Of a DNA stretch of 64,000 nucleotides, positions 2,265 to 54,700 are shown piece after piece. The DNA is taken from sequence record KY608965.1, one strand, 5' to 3'. A program made the position numbers and the translations under genes. Each line of letters opens with the position of its first letter. The stretch's first letter is position 1. A model generated the notes under the pieces. The model was not told the origin of the DNA. It worked only from the letters and a program-made list of their open reading frames with translations, and made no database searches. The stretch comes from Escherichia phage phiEC1.

Positions 2265-4587
<2,323 letters not shown>

Positions 4588-4617
4588 ATAAAATAAAGCA
4601 AATTAAGAGGAATTAAA

Positions 4618-6600
4618 ATGTCACTTCTCTCTCCGGGCGTTGAGCTCAAAGAAACTACCGTACAGAGTACTGTAGTTAATAACTCCACTGGTACTGCTGC
4701 CTTGGCTGGAAAATTCCAATGGGGACCTGCATTCCAGATTAAACAAATCACTGATGAAGTTGCATTGGTTGATATGTTTGGTACTCCTAATACGGATACA
4801 GCAGATTATTTCATGTCTGCTATGAACTTCCTTCAATATGGTAATGACCTTCGTGTTGTACGCGCAGTTGACCGTGATACTGCTAAGAACTCATCTCCTG
4901 TAGCAGGCAATATTGAATTCACAATCTCTGCTGCTGGTAGTAACTATGCAGTTGGTGATAAAATTATCGTTAAGTATTTGACCGAAACTGTTGAAGCAGA
5001 TGGTTATGTCACTTCAGTTGATGTCGATGGTAAAATTCTTAACATTTATATCCCAACCGGTAAAATTATTGCTCGTGCAAAAGAAATTAATGAATATCCG
5101 GCATTGGGTTCTAACTGGACCGCCGAAGTTGCCAGTTCTTCTTCTGGACTCTCTGGCGTTATTACAATTGGTTCTATCGTAACCGATTCGGGTATTCTGT
5201 TAACTGAAGTTGAAACTTCTGAAGAAGCTATTACTTCTCTAACTTTCCAAGAATCTATTAAAAAATATGGTGTCCCAGGCGTAGTTGCTCTTTATCCTGG
5301 TGAACTTGGCGACCAGCTCGAAATTGAAATCGTATCTAAAGCAGACTACGACAAAGGTGCTTCAGCCCAGTTAAAAATTTATCCTGATGGTGGTACTCGC
5401 GCATCTACTGCTAAAGCAATCTTTGGGTATGGCCCACAAACTGATGACCAATATGCAATTATCGTTCGTCGTAACGATGCTGTAGTCCAGAGTGTAGTTC
5501 TTTCTACTAAACGCGGTGAACGCGATATTTATGGTAGTAATATCTTTATTGATGATTTCTTTGCTAAAGGCGCAAGCAATTATATTTTCGCTACAGCACA
5601 AGGTTGGCCAAAAGGTTTCTCTGGCGTAATCAAACTTGGCGGTGGCTTATCATCTAATGAAACGGTTGACGCTGGCGATTTAATGGAAGCTTGGGATTTG
5701 TTTGCTGACCGCGAATCTGTTAATGCGCAGTTGTTTATTGCAGGTTCTTGTGCAGGTGAATCTTTAGAAGTTGCTTCTACAGTTCAGAAACATGTTGTAG
5801 CAATTGGTGATTCTCGCCAAGATTGCTTGGTTCTTTGCTCACCGCCACGTGCAACTATAGTCGGTATTCCTGTTAATCGTGCAGTTGATAATCTGGTTGA
5901 TTGGCGTACTGCGTCAGGAACTTACACTGATAATAACTTTAATGTAAGTTCTACTTATGCCGCTATTGACGGTAACTATAAATATCAATATGATAAATAT
6001 AATGATGTGAATCGTTGGGTTCCATTAGCTGCTGATATTGCTGGTCTTTGTGCTCGCACAGACAATATTTCTCAGCCTTGGATGTCTCCTGCCGGTTATA
6101 ACCGTGGACAAATTCTTAACGTTATTAAGCTTGCGATTGAAACTCGCCAAGCACAACGTGATCGTTTGTATCAGGAAGCTATTAACCCTGTTACTGGTAC
6201 CGGTGGTGATGGGTATGTTCTGTACGGTGATAAAACTGCCACTTCCGTTCCTTCACCATTTGACCGTATTAACGTTCGTCGTTTGTTCAATATGGTTAAA
6301 ACGAACATTGGTTCAGCATCTAAATATCGCCTGTTTGAATTGAACAACGCATTTACCCGTTCTTCTTTCCGTACAGAGACTTCTCAATATCTACAGGGTA
6401 TTAAAGCTCTCGGTGGTGTATATAACTTTAAAGTTGTTTGTGATACTACCAATAATACCCCAGCAGTTATCGACCGTAATGAATTTGTAGCTACTTTCTA
6501 CTTACAACCTGCCCGCTCGATAAATTATATTACGTTGAACTTTGTAGCAACAGCAACTGGTGCCGATTTCGACGAACTGATTGGTGCTGTAGGTGGTTAA
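4618..6600 (+). CDS. 18: Tail sheath protein gp18
   Basis: 660 aa, colinear with T4 gp18; SD aagagga 8 nt upstream. Confidence 0.95.
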   Translation: MSLLSPGVELKETTVQSTVVNNSTGTAALAGKFQWGPAFQIKQITDEVALVDMFGTPNTDTADYFMSAMNFLQYGNDLRVVRAVDRDTAKNSSPVAGNIEFTISAAGSNYAVGDKIIVKYLTETVEADGYVTSVDVDGKILNIYIPTGKIIARAKEINEYPALGSNWTAEVASSSSGLSGVITIGSIVTDSGILLTEVETSEEAITSLTFQESIKKYGVPGVVALYPGELGDQLEIEIVSKADYDKGASAQLKIYPDGGTRASTAKAIFGYGPQTDDQYAIIVRRNDAVVQSVVLSTKRGERDIYGSNIFIDDFFAKGASNYIFATAQGWPKGFSGVIKLGGGLSSNETVDAGDLMEAWDLFADRESVNAQLFIAGSCAGESLEVASTVQKHVVAIGDSRQDCLVLCSPPRATIVGIPVNRAVDNLVDWRTASGTYTDNNFNVSSTYAAIDGNYKYQYDKYNDVNRWVPLAADIAGLCARTDNISQPWMSPAGYNRGQILNVIKLAIETRQAQRDRLYQEAINPVTGTGGDGYVLYGDKTATSVPSPFDRINVRRLFNMVKTNIGSASKYRLFELNNAFTRSSFRTETSQYLQGIKALGGVYNFKVVCDTTNNTPAVIDRNEFVATFYLQPARSINYITLNFVATATGADFDELIGAVGG

Positions 6601-11031: not shown

Positions 11032-12600
11032 ATGACTACTATCAAAACTAAAGCTCAGCTCGTAGACAAATGGAAAGAACTGCTGGAAGGTGAAGGCCTG
11101 CCGGAAATCGCTAATAGCAAGCAGGCTATTATCGCTAAAATCTTCGAAAACCAGGAAAAAGATTTCGAAGTATCCCCTGAATATAAAGACGAGAAAATCG
11201 CTCAGGCATTTGGTTCTTTCTTGACCGAAGCTGAAATTGGTGGTGACCACGGTTATAATGCTCAGAATATTGCAGCAGGTCAAACCTCTGGTGCAGTAAC
11301 CCAAATTGGGCCGGCAGTTATGGGTATGGTTCGTCGTGCTATTCCTAATCTGATCGCTTTTGATATTTGTGGTGTTCAGCCTATGAACAGCCCGACCGGT
11401 CAGGTATTTGCTCTCCGTGCAGTATATGGTAAAGACCCTATCGCTGCTGGCGCTAAAGAAGCTTTCCATCCGATGTATGCCCCAGACGCGATGTTCTCTG
11501 GTCAGGGTGCTGCTAAGAAATTCCCAGCTCTGGCTGCTGACACTACTACTGTTGTAGGTGATATCTATACTCACTTCTTCCAAGAAACTGGTACTGTATA
11601 TCTGCAAGCTTCTGCTATCGTAACACTTGATTCTGGTGCAACTGATGCAGCTAAATTAGATGCAGAAGTTAAGAAACAAATGGAAGCTGGTGCACTGGTA
11701 GAAATCGCTGAAGGTATGGCTACTTCTATCGCTGAACTCCAGGAAGGTTTCAACGGTTCTACCGATAACCCATGGAATGAAATGGGCTTCCGTATCGATA
11801 AACAAGTTATCGAAGCTAAATCTCGCCAGCTGAAAGCTGCTTACTCTATCGAATTAGCACAAGACCTCCGTGCAGTACACGGTATGGATGCTGATGCTGA
11901 ACTGAGCGGTATTCTGGCTACAGAAATTATGCTAGAAATCAACCGTGAAGTTGTTGATTGGATTAACTACTCTGCACAGGTTGGTAAATCTGGTATGACC
12001 CTGACTCCGGGTTCTAAAGCTGGCGTATTTGACTTCCAGGACCCGATTGATATCCGTGGTGCTCGTTGGGCCGGTGAAAGCTTTAAATCTCTGTTGTTCC
12101 AGATTGATAAAGAAGCAGTTGAAATTGCTCGTCAAACCGGCCGTGGTGAAGGTAACTTCATTATCGCTTCCCGTAACGTAGTTAACGTACTGGCTTCAGT
12201 TGATACTGGTATTTCTTACGCTGCACAGGGCCTGGCTTCTGGTTTTAATACCGACACTACTAAATCTGTGTTTGCCGGTGTACTTGGTGGTAAATACCGC
12301 GTATACATCGACCAGTATGCTAAACAGGATTACTTCACCGTTGGTTACAAAGGCGCTAACGAAATGGATGCAGGTATTTACTATGCTCCTTACGTTGCAC
12401 TTACCCCACTGCGTGGTTCCGATCCTAAGAACTTCCAGCCGGTAATGGGCTTTAAAACTCGTTACGGTATCGGTGTTAACCCGTTTGCTGAAAGTTCCCT
12501 GCAGGCTCCAGGTGCTCGCATCCAGTCCGGTATGCCGTCTATCCTGAACAGCCTTGGTAAGAACGCTTACTTCCGCCGTGTATATGTAAAAGGCATCTAA
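11032..12600 (+). CDS. 23: Major capsid protein gp23
   Basis: 522 aa, >90% identical to T4 gp23 as recalled (…LLEGEGLPEIANSKQAIIAKIFENQEKDF…GKNAYFRRVYVKGI). Confidence 0.98.
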   Translation: MTTIKTKAQLVDKWKELLEGEGLPEIANSKQAIIAKIFENQEKDFEVSPEYKDEKIAQAFGSFLTEAEIGGDHGYNAQNIAAGQTSGAVTQIGPAVMGMVRRAIPNLIAFDICGVQPMNSPTGQVFALRAVYGKDPIAAGAKEAFHPMYAPDAMFSGQGAAKKFPALAADTTTVVGDIYTHFFQETGTVYLQASAIVTLDSGATDAAKLDAEVKKQMEAGALVEIAEGMATSIAELQEGFNGSTDNPWNEMGFRIDKQVIEAKSRQLKAAYSIELAQDLRAVHGMDADAELSGILATEIMLEINREVVDWINYSAQVGKSGMTLTPGSKAGVFDFQDPIDIRGARWAGESFKSLLFQIDKEAVEIARQTGRGEGNFIIASRNVVNVLASVDTGISYAAQGLASGFNTDTTKSVFAGVLGGKYRVYIDQYAKQDYFTVGYKGANEMDAGIYYAPYVALTPLRGSDPKNFQPVMGFKTRYGIGVNPFAESSLQAPGARIQSGMPSILNSLGKNAYFRRVYVKGI

Positions 12601-12624
12601 TCTTAATTGATTAAATCTTATTTT

Positions 12625-12650
12625 GGGAGACTTCGGTCTCCCATTTTTGG
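12625..12650 (+). terminator. Rho-independent terminator after gene 23 (GGGAGACTTCGGTCTCCC + T-tract)
   Basis: Perfect 7-bp stem with TTCG loop followed by ATTTTTGGTTTT; an identical hairpin recurs after gene 35. Confidence 0.85.
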
Positions 12651-12652
12651 TT

Positions 12653-12922
12653 TTATTTCTGTGCAATTTCGATGTAAGTTTTCAAAATATTTTGCCAATT
12701 AGGCATACCTTCTTGGACATATGCCGGAGAACCGTCTTTGTTTTTGAATGATGCAAGTTTATCAGTGGCCCAATAACCTTTAGCTCGAGCTTCAGAATCA
12801 ACTTTCATCCATACTTTGTTGAAGGCATTACCATTAACTTTTGCACCATATTTTTCTACTAACTTAACTGCTTCAGCTTCCAGAACTTTTAAAGTATCTC
12901 GTAAGAAACGTGCTTTAGTCAT
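12653..12922 (-). CDS. Hypothetical 89-aa early protein, antisense to the late cluster, in the gene 23/24 interval
   Basis: ORF with GAGGAG SD 9-14 nt upstream of the ATG and its own early-type promoter; no recognisable domain. Confidence 0.6.
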   Translation of the reverse strand: MTKARFLRDTLKVLEAEAVKLVEKYGAKVNGNAFNKVWMKVDSEARAKGYWATDKLASFKNKDGSPAYVQEGMPNWQNILKTYIEIAQK

Positions 12923-12952
12923 TTTGTTTACTCCTCTGTAGTTGATAAGTCT

Positions 12953-12982
12953 ATAGTATCACATACCAAATACGTTGTAAAC
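12953..12982 (-). promoter_or_regulatory. Early (sigma70-type) promoter GTTTAC-N18-TACTAT for the 89-aa ORF
   Basis: Minus-strand GTTTACAACGTATTTGGTATGTGATACTAT, about 30 nt upstream of the ATG. Confidence 0.6.
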
Positions 12983-12988
12983 AATCTT

Positions 12989-12996
12989 TATAAATA
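12989..12996 (+). promoter_or_regulatory. Late promoter TATAAATA upstream of gene 24
   Basis: Exact TATAAATA 27 nt upstream of the gene 24 ATG. Confidence 0.7.
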
Positions 12997-13022
12997 ATCT
13001 ATATCACATAAGGAAAAATGCA

Positions 13023-14306
13023 ATGAGTAAAATCCAAAAATTATTGCGTGAATCTACAACGTCTACTAGCAACTCAATCGGTCGCCCAAATCTCGTTGCT
13101 TTGACTCGCGCTACGACTAAATTAATATATTCTGACATTGTGGCAACACAAAGAACTAATCAACCTGTTGCTGCTTTTTATGGTATTAAATATCTTAACC
13201 CAGACAACGAATTAACATTTAAAACTGGTGCTACTTATGCAGGCGAAGCTGGATATGTAGACCGAGAAAAAATTACTGAGCTCACAGAAGAATCAAAAGT
13301 CACACTAAATAAAGGTGATTTTTTCAAATATAATAATATCGTCTATAAAGTGTTAGAAGATACGCCGTTTGCAGATATTCAGGAAAGTGATCTAGAATTA
13401 GCTCTTCAGATTGCGGTCGTTCATTTAAAGGTACGGCTATTTTCAGATGCAGCGGTAACAAGCAAATTTGAAAGCTCTGGTAGCGAAATTTCTGATGCAA
13501 GATTCCAGATTAATAAATGGCAAACTTCAGTCAAATCTCGTAAACTTAAAACCGGCCTCACGGTTGAATTAGCGCAAGATTTAGAAGCGAATGGATTTGA
13601 TGCCCCTAACTTCTTAGAAGATTTGCTTGCTACTGAAATGGCTGATGAAATTAATAAAGATATTCTTCAGTCTTTAATTACTGTATCTAAACGTTATAAA
13701 GTTACTGGAATTACTGACACCGGATTTATTGACTTGAGTTATGCATCTGCTCCGGAAGCAGGTCGTTCGTTATATCGAATGGTGTGTGAAATGGTTTCGC
13801 ATATCCAAAAAGAGTCAACTTATACTGCAACGTTTTGCGTAGCTTCAGCTCGTGCAGCTGCTATTCTTGCTGCTTCTGGTTGGTTAAAACATAAGCCGGA
13901 AGATGATAAGTATCTTTCACAAAATGCTTATGGATTCTTGGCAAATGGATTACCTCTTTACTGCGATACCAACAGTCCGTTAGATTATGTTATTGTGGGT
14001 GTTGTAGAAAATATCGGCGAAAAAGAGATTGTAGGGTCCATCTTTTATGCTCCATACACTGAAGGAATGGATTTAGACGACCCGGAACATGTCGGTGCAT
14101 TTAAAGTTGTAGTTGATCCGGAAAGCTTACAACCGTCTATAGGTTTATTGGTTAGATATGCTTTATCAGCAAATCCTTACACAGTAGCAAAAGATGAAAA
14201 AGAAGCGAGAGTAATTGATGGCGGGGACATGGATAAAATGGCAGGACGTTCAGACTTGTCTGTTTTACTCGGTGTTAAATTGCCTAAAATTATTATAGAT
14301 GAATAA
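13023..14306 (+). CDS. 24: Capsid vertex protein gp24
   Basis: 427 aa, near-identical to T4 gp24 as recalled (…LLRESTT…SNSIGRPNLVALTRATTKLIYSDIVATQRTNQPVAAFYGIKYLNPDNE…). Confidence 0.97.
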   Translation: MSKIQKLLRESTTSTSNSIGRPNLVALTRATTKLIYSDIVATQRTNQPVAAFYGIKYLNPDNELTFKTGATYAGEAGYVDREKITELTEESKVTLNKGDFFKYNNIVYKVLEDTPFADIQESDLELALQIAVVHLKVRLFSDAAVTSKFESSGSEISDARFQINKWQTSVKSRKLKTGLTVELAQDLEANGFDAPNFLEDLLATEMADEINKDILQSLITVSKRYKVTGITDTGFIDLSYASAPEAGRSLYRMVCEMVSHIQKESTYTATFCVASARAAAILAASGWLKHKPEDDKYLSQNAYGFLANGLPLYCDTNSPLDYVIVGVVENIGEKEIVGSIFYAPYTEGMDLDDPEHVGAFKVVVDPESLQPSIGLLVRYALSANPYTVAKDEKEARVIDGGDMDKMAGRSDLSVLLGVKLPKIIIDE

Positions 14307-15707: not shown

Positions 15708-15898
15708 TTCTTCACCTTTTTGTTAATCAAACGTTTACGGTATACAACTTTTTCTTTTGCTTTAAACTTTGACCGAGCTGTCTCGGCTTTAGTCCATAGT
15801 AATCCAACTTCTTTAGGTTGTAAACCAATTTTTTGAGCAATTTCTACGAATGAAAATCCCGCCTCATGTAATGTATAAACTTCAACTTCAGCTCTCAT
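15704..15898 (-). CDS. Hypothetical small basic protein with possible helix-turn-helix
   Basis: 64 aa; GFSFVEIAQKIGLQPKEVG resembles an HTH; lysine-rich C-terminus. Confidence 0.5.
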   Translation of the reverse strand: MRAEVEVYTLHEAGFSFVEIAQKIGLQPKEVGLLWTKAETARSKFKAKEKVVYRKRLINKKVKK

Positions 15899-28287: not shown

Positions 28288-28317
28288 ATAGTATCACACA
28301 TCCATGTGTTTGTAAAC
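28288..28317 (-). promoter_or_regulatory. Early promoter GTTTAC-N18-TACTAT with inverted repeat ACACA/TGTGT in the spacer
   Basis: Minus-strand GTTTACAAACACATGGATGTGTGATACTAT immediately after the alt stop. Confidence 0.65.
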
Positions 28318-34082: not shown

Positions 34083-34136
34083 ATTTTTCCACTTAGTAAA
34101 GAAATCATTATACTCTAATCCGTCCTTGGATGTAAA

Positions 34137-34751
34137 CTACTTAACGAAATTAATTTCTACCGGATGAACAACAGGTTGAGCAGTGATATATTGAGTAATT
34201 GCTTTCATGACTAGAGCTTCAGAACCAGGATTTTTCTCAACGAATTCACGTGCTTGGTTATGAGCTTCAAGTTCACTTAGTAAACCACTTCGTTGGCATC
34301 CACGGTCTTGAGTACCCTGTTCAGATAAAAAGACGACGATGTATTTTTCATCGTCATAAGATTTAGACGGTTGAGCAAATGTTCCTTTACTTCCGAAAGG
34401 AGAGTTATGACGCCACATCACGCCGTGAGGAGTTTCAACCTTCGTATATTCGTGCGGGCCATTTTTCTTAATTTCTTGATGTGGAACTTCATGGACCTTA
34501 GGGTTAGGACATTCAATAAAATGCTCGTCTAAATCGGTCGAGAATATTAAAGTAAAACAATTACTGAATTTACCAACACCTGCCTGATAAATTTTACCTT
34601 CAGAAGTTCTAATTTCACAAACTGAGCCGGCATCAGTAACTTCTAAAACTTCAAAAGGCTCGATAAGGTCATATGAGAACATGTTTTTAAGGCGTGGAGT
34701 AATATCCCCATTTTTAAAATTCATTTTATAAAAAGTATTAACTTTAAACAT
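34137..34751 (-). CDS. Hypothetical protein, 204 aa
   Basis: ORF with SD GAGGAAA; preceded by GGGAGCTTCGGCTCCC hairpin; no recognised domain. Confidence 0.6.
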   Translation of the reverse strand: MFKVNTFYKMNFKNGDITPRLKNMFSYDLIEPFEVLEVTDAGSVCEIRTSEGKIYQAGVGKFSNCFTLIFSTDLDEHFIECPNPKVHEVPHQEIKKNGPHEYTKVETPHGVMWRHNSPFGSKGTFAQPSKSYDDEKYIVVFLSEQGTQDRGCQRSGLLSELEAHNQAREFVEKNPGSEALVMKAITQYITAQPVVHPVEINFVK

Positions 34752-35182: not shown

Positions 35183-35222
35183 GGTACAGGTATATAATAA
35201 CATAACCTGTACCAAAGTAAAC
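35183..35222 (-). promoter_or_regulatory. Early promoter cassette: GTTTAC-N17-TATTAT with 9-bp inverted repeat GGTACAGGT/ACCTGTACC straddling the -10
   Basis: Minus-strand AAACAGTTTACTTTGGTACAGGTTATGTTATTATATACCTGTACC directly after the upstream stop codon. Confidence 0.6.
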
Positions 35223-35595: not shown

Positions 35596-35699
35596 TTTAT
35601 TCTCCGGTTGTTTTATTGATTAGGTGGTACAAGTCTATAGTAACACATCCTACAGGAGAGTAAACATCTTTTTTAAACTTTTTCTGCCCTAAACGCACA

Positions 35700-39060: not shown

Positions 39061-39121
39061 TTCGATTTCCTCATTGTGTTGGTAGAGTTATAGTATCACA
39101 ACTCCACCATGTTGTAAACCA

Positions 39122-41209: not shown

Positions 41210-41245
41210 AGGAGCATTATACTCTGCTCCTGAGAGTTTGTAAAC
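41210..41245 (-). promoter_or_regulatory. Early promoter cassette GTTTAC-N18-TATAAT with 7-bp inverted repeat AGGAGCA/TGCTCCT straddling the -10
   Basis: Minus-strand GTTTACAAACTCTCAGGAGCAGAGTATAATGCTCCT. Confidence 0.6.
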
Positions 41246-42620: not shown

Positions 42621-42650
42621 ATAGTATCACCATCCTTGGTGTTTGTAAAC
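42621..42650 (-). promoter_or_regulatory. Early promoter GTTTAC-N18-TACTAT with inverted repeat CACCA/TGGTG in the spacer
   Basis: Minus-strand GTTTACAAACACCAAGGATGGTGATACTAT. Confidence 0.65.
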
Positions 42651-43803: not shown

Positions 43804-43833
43804 ATTGTACCACAATCCTTGTGGTATGTAAAC
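43804..43833 (-). promoter_or_regulatory. Early promoter GTTTAC-N18-TACAAT with inverted repeat CCACAA/TTGTGG in the spacer, upstream of rnlA
   Basis: Minus-strand GTTTACATACCACAAGGATTGTGGTACAAT. Confidence 0.65.
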
Positions 43834-50698: not shown

Positions 50699-50727
50699 AT
50701 ACTAACACATTCAGGGAAGAAGTAAAC
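50699..50727 (-). promoter_or_regulatory. Early promoter GTTTAC-N17-TAGTAT upstream of paralogue B
   Basis: Minus-strand GTTTACTTCTTCCCTGAATGTGTTAGTAT, downstream of the gene 32 terminator. Confidence 0.55.
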
Positions 50728-53131: not shown

Positions 53132-53466
53132 AATAAGAAATCTAACGTATTAGTTTTTTCACCACGAGCAACTGATGGGCGAAGCATGTTTTCGTCAATT
53201 GCTTCGCTTGTAATTTTTTCAACAATTCCTGTAGGAATAAATTTAGCAAATTGTGTTTCTGGAATAGAATTTTCTTCTAAGAAAGCAGTTGTTGCTTCTA
53301 AATAAGACATACCAAATTGTTCAACCATAGATTCGATAATGAATCCGTTTTCTTGACGGTCAAGCAATTTAGCGATATCATCTTTATCGTGTTTTACTGC
53401 TAATTCTTGTTCAGATAAACCGGCCTCATCAACCGGTTTAATATCACTTAGTGAAAACTGTGTCAT
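53128..53466 (-). CDS. 33: Late transcription accessory protein gp33
   Basis: 112 aa, colinear with T4 gp33. Confidence 0.92.
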   Translation of the reverse strand: MTQFSLSDIKPVDEAGLSEQELAVKHDKDDIAKLLDRQENGFIIESMVEQFGMSYLEATTAFLEENSIPETQFAKFIPTGIVEKITSEAIDENMLRPSVARGEKTNTLDFLL

Positions 53467-53713
53467 AAAGCTCGACTACCTCTTCGTTTTCAGCTTCAAA
53501 TTGGTCACGAGCATCTTTATGATAAAGAGCTAACAAACGATTAAACATTTTTCCATCGACACCAAGCTCTTCTTTAGCACGAGTACGAATGTCTTTAATC
53601 AGTTCATTATAACCAGAAATTTTAAGTTTGTTATCGGAAGCTTCCTTGACTAGTTTAGCCAGTTCTTCACCATGCACATCTTGATTAAATTCAACTGCTT
53701 CTTTCTTAGTCAT
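53444..53713 (-). CDS. dsbA: Double-stranded DNA-binding protein DsbA
   Basis: Start set at MTKKEAVEF… (SD GAGGTAA upstream; 89 aa); track ORF begins 6 codons earlier inside rnh. Confidence 0.85.
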   Translation of the reverse strand: MTKKEAVEFNQDVHGEELAKLVKEASDNKLKISGYNELIKDIRTRAKEELGVDGKMFNRLLALYHKDARDQFEAENEEVVELYDTVFTK

Positions 53714-53720
53714 GTTTACC

Positions 53721-54638
53721 TCAGAATTCATTAATTACACTTGTTAATTTAGAAAGTCCAGATTTTACAAAGTATGAATAAATCTTGCCTTTAGGTTGTT
53801 GTTTATATGAGTTATAATACTCTATAATGGTTGAAGCAATATTATCAGGGATATAATCAAAATCAATGAGAACCAAATTTTCTTGATACCGTTTATATTC
53901 TTCTGCACTTAATAATACTTCAGCTTGAGAACGGTCATTAGCAATTGCTTCAATAATTGATGTTTTCATGCTTGGAGTTCGTTCACCTTCAACTCTGGTA
54001 AACCAGAAGTCACCACGAACTCGAACAGATGCAACACCATCCTTACGGTCGCCTTTAAGAATTTTAGTCATGCAATCAATTTCAGCAGAACCGTTCTTAA
54101 TTTTAACCCATTTTTTCTGTGGTGGCGACCACTGTTTAACGTTAGGATATTTGTGTAATTGTGTAAAGTCACCATCTGATGCAACAATACATACCTTATG
54201 ACCGGCTAATGACAAATATTTAGTTAATACACCGATATGGTCATCCGCTTCATACTTGTCAATATCCATTACAACGTATGGCATGTATTTCTTAATCTCA
54301 TCAACAACTTGATGGAGTGCAGTAAAATATCCTTCCCAATCCCACTTTGAAGCTTCACGATCGGTTTTGCGATTTTTCTTGTAATAGTAAGCAAAGTCAC
54401 GTCGCCAATAACCTGAAGTAGCATTATCCATACACAATACAAATTTTGTATAGCCTTGCTTACGGAACATCACTACGTTTTTACGAATTGAATTCAAGAT
54501 TACATGGCGAACCATCGGAACAGTAATTTTATCACCATCTTCAAAGTTGTTTAATGCGGCTGCCAACGCAATGTTACTAAAGTCGGCAAGTGCAATACCT
54601 TCTTTGTAATCTTCATCCAACATCATTTCTAAATCCAT
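53721..54638 (-). CDS. rnh: RNase H (5'-3' exonuclease / flap endonuclease)
   Basis: 305 aa, colinear with T4 RNase H (MDLEMMLDEDYKEGI…). Confidence 0.95.
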   Translation of the reverse strand: MDLEMMLDEDYKEGIALADFSNIALAAALNNFEDGDKITVPMVRHVILNSIRKNVVMFRKQGYTKFVLCMDNATSGYWRRDFAYYYKKNRKTDREASKWDWEGYFTALHQVVDEIKKYMPYVVMDIDKYEADDHIGVLTKYLSLAGHKVCIVASDGDFTQLHKYPNVKQWSPPQKKWVKIKNGSAEIDCMTKILKGDRKDGVASVRVRGDFWFTRVEGERTPSMKTSIIEAIANDRSQAEVLLSAEEYKRYQENLVLIDFDYIPDNIASTIIEYYNSYKQQPKGKIYSYFVKSGLSKLTSVINEF

Positions 54639-54668: not shown

Positions 54669-54700
54669 CTATAGTAACACACTCATTTGAAAGCGTAAAC
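54669..54700 (-). promoter_or_regulatory. Early promoter GTTTAC-N18-TACTAT upstream of rnh
   Basis: Minus-strand GTTTACGCTTTCAAATGAGTGTGTTACTAT in the rnh/gene 34 divergent spacer. Confidence 0.6.

Follow-up and report, generated by a model that had tools for sequence, protein, structure and literature searches.

A minus-strand ORF of 89 codons lies between two plus-strand late genes of Escherichia phage phiEC1 (KY608965.1), those for the major capsid protein (gene 23) and the capsid vertex protein (gene 24). Is an ORF that runs against the late genes at this site a real gene, does it have an early promoter of its own, and what may its product do? A first-pass annotation made from the sequence had proposed a separately promoted early gene, plausibly an accessory or anti-defence one, in the interval where T4 carries segD. 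The locus has been analysed within a stretch of 64,000 nucleotides of the phage, referred to here as the window. The reading favored, with a probability of roughly 0.6, is that of a separately transcribed immediate-early gene whose product is a dispensable, basic accessory protein acting as a stoichiometric binder in host takeover or counter-defence.

A conserved gene on the opposite strand

The phage carrying the ORF belongs to the RB69-like T-even phages (genus Mosigvirus), and the 601 bp around the ORF are 99.5–99.8% identical to FP43, PhAPEC2, APCEc01, and many more. The gap from the stop of gene 23 (12600) to the start of gene 24 (13023) measures 422 bp and is mostly taken up by the ORF, which encodes a protein of 10.1 kDa with a pI of 9.6. 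The minus-strand ORF and its strong Shine-Dalgarno sequence, both named in the first-pass annotation, were recovered (Table 1), and a GGAG core at equal spacing to the ATG is present at every homologous locus aligned. ORF length by itself is no evidence for the gene, since the ORF list also contains a spurious antisense ORF of 156 aa inside gene 23. No paralog of the 89-aa protein was found in the window, where a weak match at 53444–53731 is a DsbA-like protein and was taken as noise. An Rfam scan of positions 12000–13600 gave no family at the gathering score.

Table 1. Coordinates in the window of the 89-aa gene, its neighbors and the associated signals.
Feature	Position	Strand	Basis	Remark
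Gene 23, major capsid protein	11032..12600	+		Convergent neighbor; gp23 94.6% aa identity to T4 gp23
Hairpin TGGGAGAC-TTCG-GTCTCCCA and T-run, intrinsic terminator of gene 23	12624..12653 (hairpin 12624-12643)	+	Terminator scan	
89-aa CDS	12653..12922	-	ORF list	ATG start; stop codon included
Shine-Dalgarno GAGGAG	12931..12936	-	Sequence	8 nt 5' of ATG
Extended -10 TGA-TACTAT	12953..12961 (hexamer 12953-12958)	-	Sequence, promoter scan, pattern count	
-35 GTTTAC, T-even early-promoter type	12977..12982	-	Sequence, promoter scan, pattern count	18-nt spacer to -10
Gene 24 late promoter TATAAATA	12989..12996	+	Sequence	27 nt before gp24 ATG
Gene 24, capsid vertex protein	13023..14306	+		Divergent neighbor; gp24 95.1% aa identity to T4 gp24

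A tblastn search with the 89-aa protein has revealed a homolog in 239 of 50,697 phage records, about 120 of them at least 80% identical and 119 less than 60% identical. About 117 Mosigvirus records have an intact ORF of at least 95% identity, and in many of them the protein is 100% identical. Two uncultured lineages encode syntenic proteins of 62–70% identity. Divergent homologs (31–38% identity) were found in Gaprivervirus (VR20) and Dhakavirus (WG01, 04086), always in the 23-24 gap and on the strand opposite to these genes, the position also seen in PhAPEC2, ATK47, RB69, L009, and L011. Conservation in close relatives, which the first-pass annotation had named as a check, is thus borne out. 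The family alignment is almost gap-free, with F6, G31, N32, N35, and Q70 invariant, and the members are all basic (pI 9.3–9.7). They fall into two deep allele classes, Mosigvirus-type and Dhakavirus-type, that are about 33% identical, and the family has been retained across genera despite a difference of about 65% at the protein level. Nei-Gojobori dN/dS was 0.158 for the window versus L009, 0.119 for VR20 versus WG01, and 0.136 for WG01 versus 04086, the three pairs for which it is measurable, synonymous sites being saturated between deeper pairs. AlphaFold2 models of both allele classes have mean pLDDT values of 89.1 and 93.9 and identical topology, with a compact predicted fold of helix 3–25, helix 31–48, beta-hairpin 56–70, and helix 76–88. 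On the strength of the conservation and the dN/dS values, the 89-aa ORF is a real protein-coding gene under purifying selection, and it is very probable that this real gene carries early-type signals.

The gene is already catalogued, as PHROG 6003 and as "hypothetical protein" in about 240 phage records. The 89-aa protein matches the PHROG 6003 profile with an E value of 2.1e-45, residues 1–89 aligning with profile positions 1–90 of 90, and PhAPEC2_170 is annotated as similar to RB69ORF188c. RB69ORF188c and ORF189c are the same gene as that of the window, in a region of 98% DNA identity; in the RB69 reference, however, the gene is split into ORF188c (41 aa) and ORF189c (29 aa), whereas the intact 89-aa form is the norm and is found in more than 100 other Mosigvirus genomes. 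The RB69 sequence (NC_004928 109291–109531; L012 1792–2032) has a +1 indel in a cluster of mismatches and then a -1 indel, which leave the middle out of frame; the split is either an old sequencing error or a lesion of the laboratory strain. The gene is also frameshifted in mogra and truncated in 310Ecol104PP. These broken copies, including the two frameshifts of the RB69 reference, could be read as signs that the ORF is in decay or has no function and that its promoter is a relic, a reading that is scarcely credible in view of the intact, nearly identical copies across Mosigvirus, the purifying selection, and the retention of the family between genera so far apart.

A family member has also been found in Acinetobacter phage ABPH49, which belongs to the Vequintavirinae and is not T-even. 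It lies at L007 3995–4261, with a GTG start, in a run of small hypothetical genes and is a 60%-class relative of a metagenomic member. Its location away from gene 23 indicates that the family is not tied to capsid genes. The ABPH49 member is flanked by GC-rich hairpins, GGGCCGAAAGGTCC upstream and GGCCCCGAAAGGGGCC downstream, and hairpins and context suggest that it moves horizontally as a small cassette. Nine proteins were matched when 1.84 billion representatives were searched with a profile; the real relatives among them are all 84–90 aa long and carry no annotation. The two large ones, P0022 and P0024, were rejected as relatives, being Big_2/Ig-repeat proteins that are significant only by summing repeats, as was P0020, an assembly chimera whose last 33 residues are a Dhakavirus-type protein. 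The 90-aa phage protein P0006 is named "NADPH-dependent curcumin reductase CurA" in one source, an obvious mis-annotation. Scans of IMG/VR and metagenomes returned the same T-even lineages only.

Promoters and terminator around the gene

T-even early promoters have been described as GTTTAC at -36 to -31, a spacer of 17/18 nt, and a TAnnAT -10 hexamer often with TG, with A-rich sequence around -40 to -44 (PMC1524935). The sigma70-type promoter GTTTAC-N18-TACTAT reported by the first-pass annotation is present upstream of the 89-aa gene. It carries GAAAT at -40 to -44 and, as GTTTAC-N18-TGA-TACTAT, has the sequence features of a T-even (T4-type) early promoter. A consensus scan calls the same promoter as TTTACA-17-TACTAT (9/12, with TG), and its hexamers agree with the T-even consensus TTTACW-N17-TAYWAT obtained from promoter-early stem-loop elements (PMC4122927). 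Transcription of the 89-aa gene would start near position 12946.

The pattern GTTTAC-N17-19-TANNNT has 14 matches in the window against 2.96 expected on both strands, every match lying on the minus strand. The promoter of the 89-aa gene fits the local consensus GTTTACAA...TGTGATACTAT; because several of the 14 sites have this extended form, the site belongs with the early-promoter set of the phage. Further matches, all on the minus strand, lie at 15796–15825, 28288–28317, 34107–34137, 35194–35222, 35637–35665, 39090–39119, 41216–41245, 42621–42650, 43804–43833, 50699–50727, and 54671–54700. Many of the sites in the window have GTTTACAA...GTGATACTAT in common, and the minus-strand sites chart the candidate early transcription units of the window.

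The sequences upstream of the gene were aligned for seven lineages, namely the window, L009, L011, VR20, WG01, 04086, and ATK47. All have the complement of the late promoter (TATTTATA), 6 nt, the -35 hexamer, an 18-nt spacer, the -10 hexamer, and the GGAG ribosome site in this order. The -35 hexamer is GTTTAC, GTGTAC (L009) or ATTTAC and the -10 hexamer TAYTAT or CATAAT, mostly with TG before it, and the spacer sequences between them are unrelated among the lineages. Hexamers that are kept while the spacer between them changes freely mark a functional promoter. Nolan et al. (2006) have predicted an early promoter of RB69 on the minus strand, Pe:109605, with a score of 29.9 (PMC1524935 supplement), and this maps onto the early promoter of the 89-aa gene. 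The canonical match, the conservation in seven lineages, and the RB69 prediction all speak for the separately promoted, early-type antisense gene that the first-pass annotation had put forward, as far as the sequence can indicate it. A literature search for RB69ORF188c and for Mosigvirus transcriptomes returned nothing.

The back-to-back arrangement with the gene 24 late promoter was likewise as proposed, 6 bp separating TATAAATA from the early -35 hexamer. The late motif has 18 copies in the window (7.07 expected), 14 of them on the plus strand. Its complement lies within an A/T-rich stretch upstream of the early -35 hexamer and is kept in all lineages aligned. The plus-strand late promoter Pl:109573 of RB69 (PMC1524935 supplement) maps onto the gene 24 late promoter of the window.

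At the other end of the gene, the terminator hairpin of gene 23 sits directly past the stop codon of the minus-strand ORF, and a TransTerm terminator of RB69 labelled "23-><-RB69ORF188c" (PMC1524935 supplement) maps onto it. The minus-strand RNA fold of the hairpin has an energy of -19 kcal/mol (z -4.4). On this strand, the hairpin is followed by AAAAUAAG and not by a U-run, so that it is plausible, or even likely, that some transcription runs on across the 3' end of gene 23 in antisense. The hairpin downstream of T4 segD likewise has no U-run on the segD strand. Read-through of this kind could mean that the RNA is the functional product, an antisense to the 3' end of gene 23 that damps premature capsid expression, with the ORF incidental. 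This is very unlikely, as dN/dS values of 0.12–0.16 denote strong constraint at the protein level, the ribosome site is conserved, and the fold is confident. In addition, VR20 does show a true U-run on the strand of the ORF, RB7-type phages have no promoter for that strand in the gap, and the Acinetobacter phage has a family member away from gene 23. Given the protein-level constraint, antisense read-through is unlikely to be the purpose of the unit.

Variable contents of the 23-24 slot

As the first-pass annotation had stated, T4 (NC_000866) has segD, encoding a GIY-YIG endonuclease, between genes 23 and 24; it lies on the minus strand, and the small ORF is absent. Upstream of T4 segD, ATTTAC-N18-TATTAT adjoins the gene 24 late promoter and is scored as TTTACA-17-TATTAT (10/12, with TG; L006 7254–7282). 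A 2010 review states that a segD-specific promoter could not be found (PMC2988022), and T4 omics data place segD in the early class as RNA and in the middle class as protein, the protein having been detected (PMC9697503 supplement). This sigma-70-type promoter of segD is homologous in position to that of the 89-aa gene and fits the early class of the segD RNA, which lends indirect support to early use of the promoter of the 89-aa gene; the early segD RNA could instead come from read-through. In RB7-type Tequatroviruses, the gap is 83 bp and contains the hairpin and the late promoter alone, with neither ORF nor early promoter.

The small ORF and segD have been found in tandem behind one promoter in 38 phage records. 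In Dhakavirus 04086 and Mosigvirus ATK47, the small ORF is directly followed by a SegD ortholog that is 58% identical to T4 SegD. ATK47 (L005 2040–3065, compared with L004) has a Mosigvirus backbone with a Dhakavirus-type cassette of ORF and segD that is 94–100% identical to 04086, and the replaced stretch takes in the last ~30 nt of gene 23 and continues to the ribosome site of the small ORF. Since its contents vary in this way among T-even phages, the slot can be described as running from promoter to hairpin, with contents exchangeable between genera.

The small ORF and segD are unannotated in the ATK47 record, where gp24 is mislabelled "homing endonuclease." The 04086 record has the major head protein as 1110 nt (3502–4611) and a spurious "hypothetical protein" on the opposite strand (4633–5046); the ORF list gives an intact gp23 ORF of 519 aa at L004 3502–5061, so this looks like an annotation error. 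Gaprivervirus (L002 1–2394), Dhakavirus (L003 1–2399), and the uncultured lineage L009 (337–2901) have two tandem paralogs of the vertex protein gp24; the window and T4 have one.

The tandem records, the joint acquisition of ORF and segD by ATK47, and the homologous promoter in front of T4 segD are consistent with a small ORF that is part of the segD mobile element, as a helper, regulator or hitch-hiker transcribed and spreading with the GIY-YIG endonuclease. Such membership is nevertheless distinctly improbable. Of the 239 carriers of the ORF, about 200 lack segD, T4 shows the reverse with segD alone, no annotated endonuclease occurs near the Acinetobacter phage homolog, and joint transfer as in ATK47 is expected for any flanking marker under co-conversion. 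A relation of the 89-aa protein to SegD or other GIY-YIG proteins was also rejected, with no Pfam match and an hhalign probability of 2% against T4 SegD.

Because 38 genomes carry both genes in tandem, the small ORF and segD are rather to be seen as independent modules, and the ORF has probably resided in the slot for long, in three or more genera. The gp23 and gp24 of the window are about 95% identical to those of T4 and 83% and 69% identical to those of Dhakavirus/Gaprivervirus. With such T4-like flanks (Table 1), loss or displacement of an old resident ORF in the T4 lineage is favored over its gain here, and the comparison suggests this as the simplest history. The comparison of the 23-24 interval among T4-like phages upholds one part of the picture drawn in the first-pass annotation, a distinct small gene in a variable slot that holds segD in T4. 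The other part, in which a different gene occupies the hotspot in place of segD, does not stand, as the small gene coexists with segD in 38 genomes and is no substitute for it. The description as an accessory gene agrees with its absence from T4 and RB7 and its disruption in the RB69 reference, mogra, and 310Ecol104PP.

Proposed expression and role

Scans of the 89-aa protein and its family against Pfam, NCBIfam, and PADLOC gave nothing above threshold. DUF4859 (17.9 bits, below the cutoff of 22.6, in only two of 14 members) and Ca_bind_SSO6904 (19.1 bits, cutoff 25, confined to P0004 and P0005) were rejected as too weak and too uneven over the family. A sequence search of the PDB with the family profile had a best E value of 0.026, to unrelated proteins, and Foldseek gave no PDB match at E ≤0.001. 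The top weak PDB matches of Foldseek, winged-helix-like domains with TM <0.3, are not significant, and the sole Foldseek match in BFVD is a member of the same family. No characterised anti-defence inhibitor was matched in the general libraries searched (Pfam, PHROG functional families, NCBIfam, PDB sequences, PDB folds, and BFVD), and no catalytic motif was found in the protein. The homology search proposed by the first-pass annotation has thus brought plentiful homologs in T-even phages and no relative of known function by sequence or fold. An early-protein screen of the Mosigvirus AV110 tested only genes with T4 homologs and so skipped the 89-aa gene, and phages of this kind fall outside HIDEN-SEQ.

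The site of the gene within the head-gene cluster, between genes 23 and 24, and a very weak PHROG match to an "internal virion protein" family (E 0.09) might point to a head-assembly or virion-associated protein. This role is highly doubtful, since the gene is on the early strand, an early-type promoter precedes it, and no exact TATAAATA is found upstream on the minus strand. It is also absent from T4, in spite of the close identity of gp23 and gp24, and disrupted in viable phages. The absence or breakage of the gene in viable phages (T4, RB7, the RB69 reference, mogra, and 310Ecol104PP) argues that it is dispensable. A protein that is small, basic, compact, without a catalytic motif, and dispensable may be a stoichiometric binder, and this mode of action is proposed tentatively. 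From the positive charge, one would first think of a nucleic acid, or of a protein associated with nucleic acid, as the target, a basic pI being a weak sign of nucleic-acid binding. The conserved Asn, Gly, and Gln residues could be purely structural (helix cap, hairpin docking) and not a binding site.

Early timing, binding mechanism, and target, as we infer them for the favored immediate-early gene, would combine as follows. Host sigma-70 RNA polymerase would start at GTTTAC-N18-TGnTACTAT in the first minutes of infection and give a transcript with a leader of roughly 24 nt, a strong ribosome site, and the 89-codon ORF. The polymerase would then meet the terminator hairpin of gene 23 from the wrong side, with some antisense read-through into gene 23. 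The 89-aa protein would bind a host or phage macromolecule early in infection, stoichiometrically. T4 early promoters are shut off once phage factors remodel the polymerase. The early promoter of the 89-aa gene would then be off and the neighboring gp55-dependent TATAAATA would fire in the opposite direction for gene 24, so that the two back-to-back promoters would be separated in time.

Small immediate-early proteins of T4 that serve host takeover include Alc, Ndd, MotB, Arn, and AsiA. The 89-aa gene is like theirs in being small, driven by an early promoter, dispensable under laboratory conditions, and present in some T-even genera but not in others; unlike them, its product has no sequence or fold similarity to any functionally characterised protein. 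The T4 segD locus is alike in slot, minus-strand orientation, homologous promoter with TG, and a similar hairpin after gene 23, and differs in cargo, which is unrelated to the 89-aa protein. The locus resembles the cassettes of T4-type phages called PeSLs, promoter-early stem-loops (Arbiol 2010; Comeau 2014), in that its early promoter fits the PeSL consensus and a small variable ORF lies between conserved regulatory sequences, where recombination junctions are found (ATK47). A PeSL stem-loop, however, stands directly upstream of the promoter, whereas the gene 24 late promoter and 5' UTR are in that place here; the only hairpin, at 12624–12643, is downstream of the 89-aa ORF, and the locus is not counted as a PeSL cassette.

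The gene matters modestly, as one of many early accessory genes of T-even phages that is already present in databases. Its analysis has exposed that the RB69 reference annotation splits an otherwise intact gene and that T4 segD, contrary to the 2010 review, has a candidate promoter of its own. A more specific and rather unlikely version of the role is that the family consists of immediate-early inhibitors, with a fold that has no neighbor in the PDB and BFVD searched, which neutralise a specific defence or host factor of E. coli. If this were true, the two deep allele classes would reflect an arms race, and counter-defence alleles could travel from genus to genus alongside segD, ATK47 being an instance of such exchange. 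If its function does lie in host takeover or counter-defence, the protein would bring a new fold to the factors of that kind and would bear on the use of Mosigvirus phages in therapy and biocontrol.
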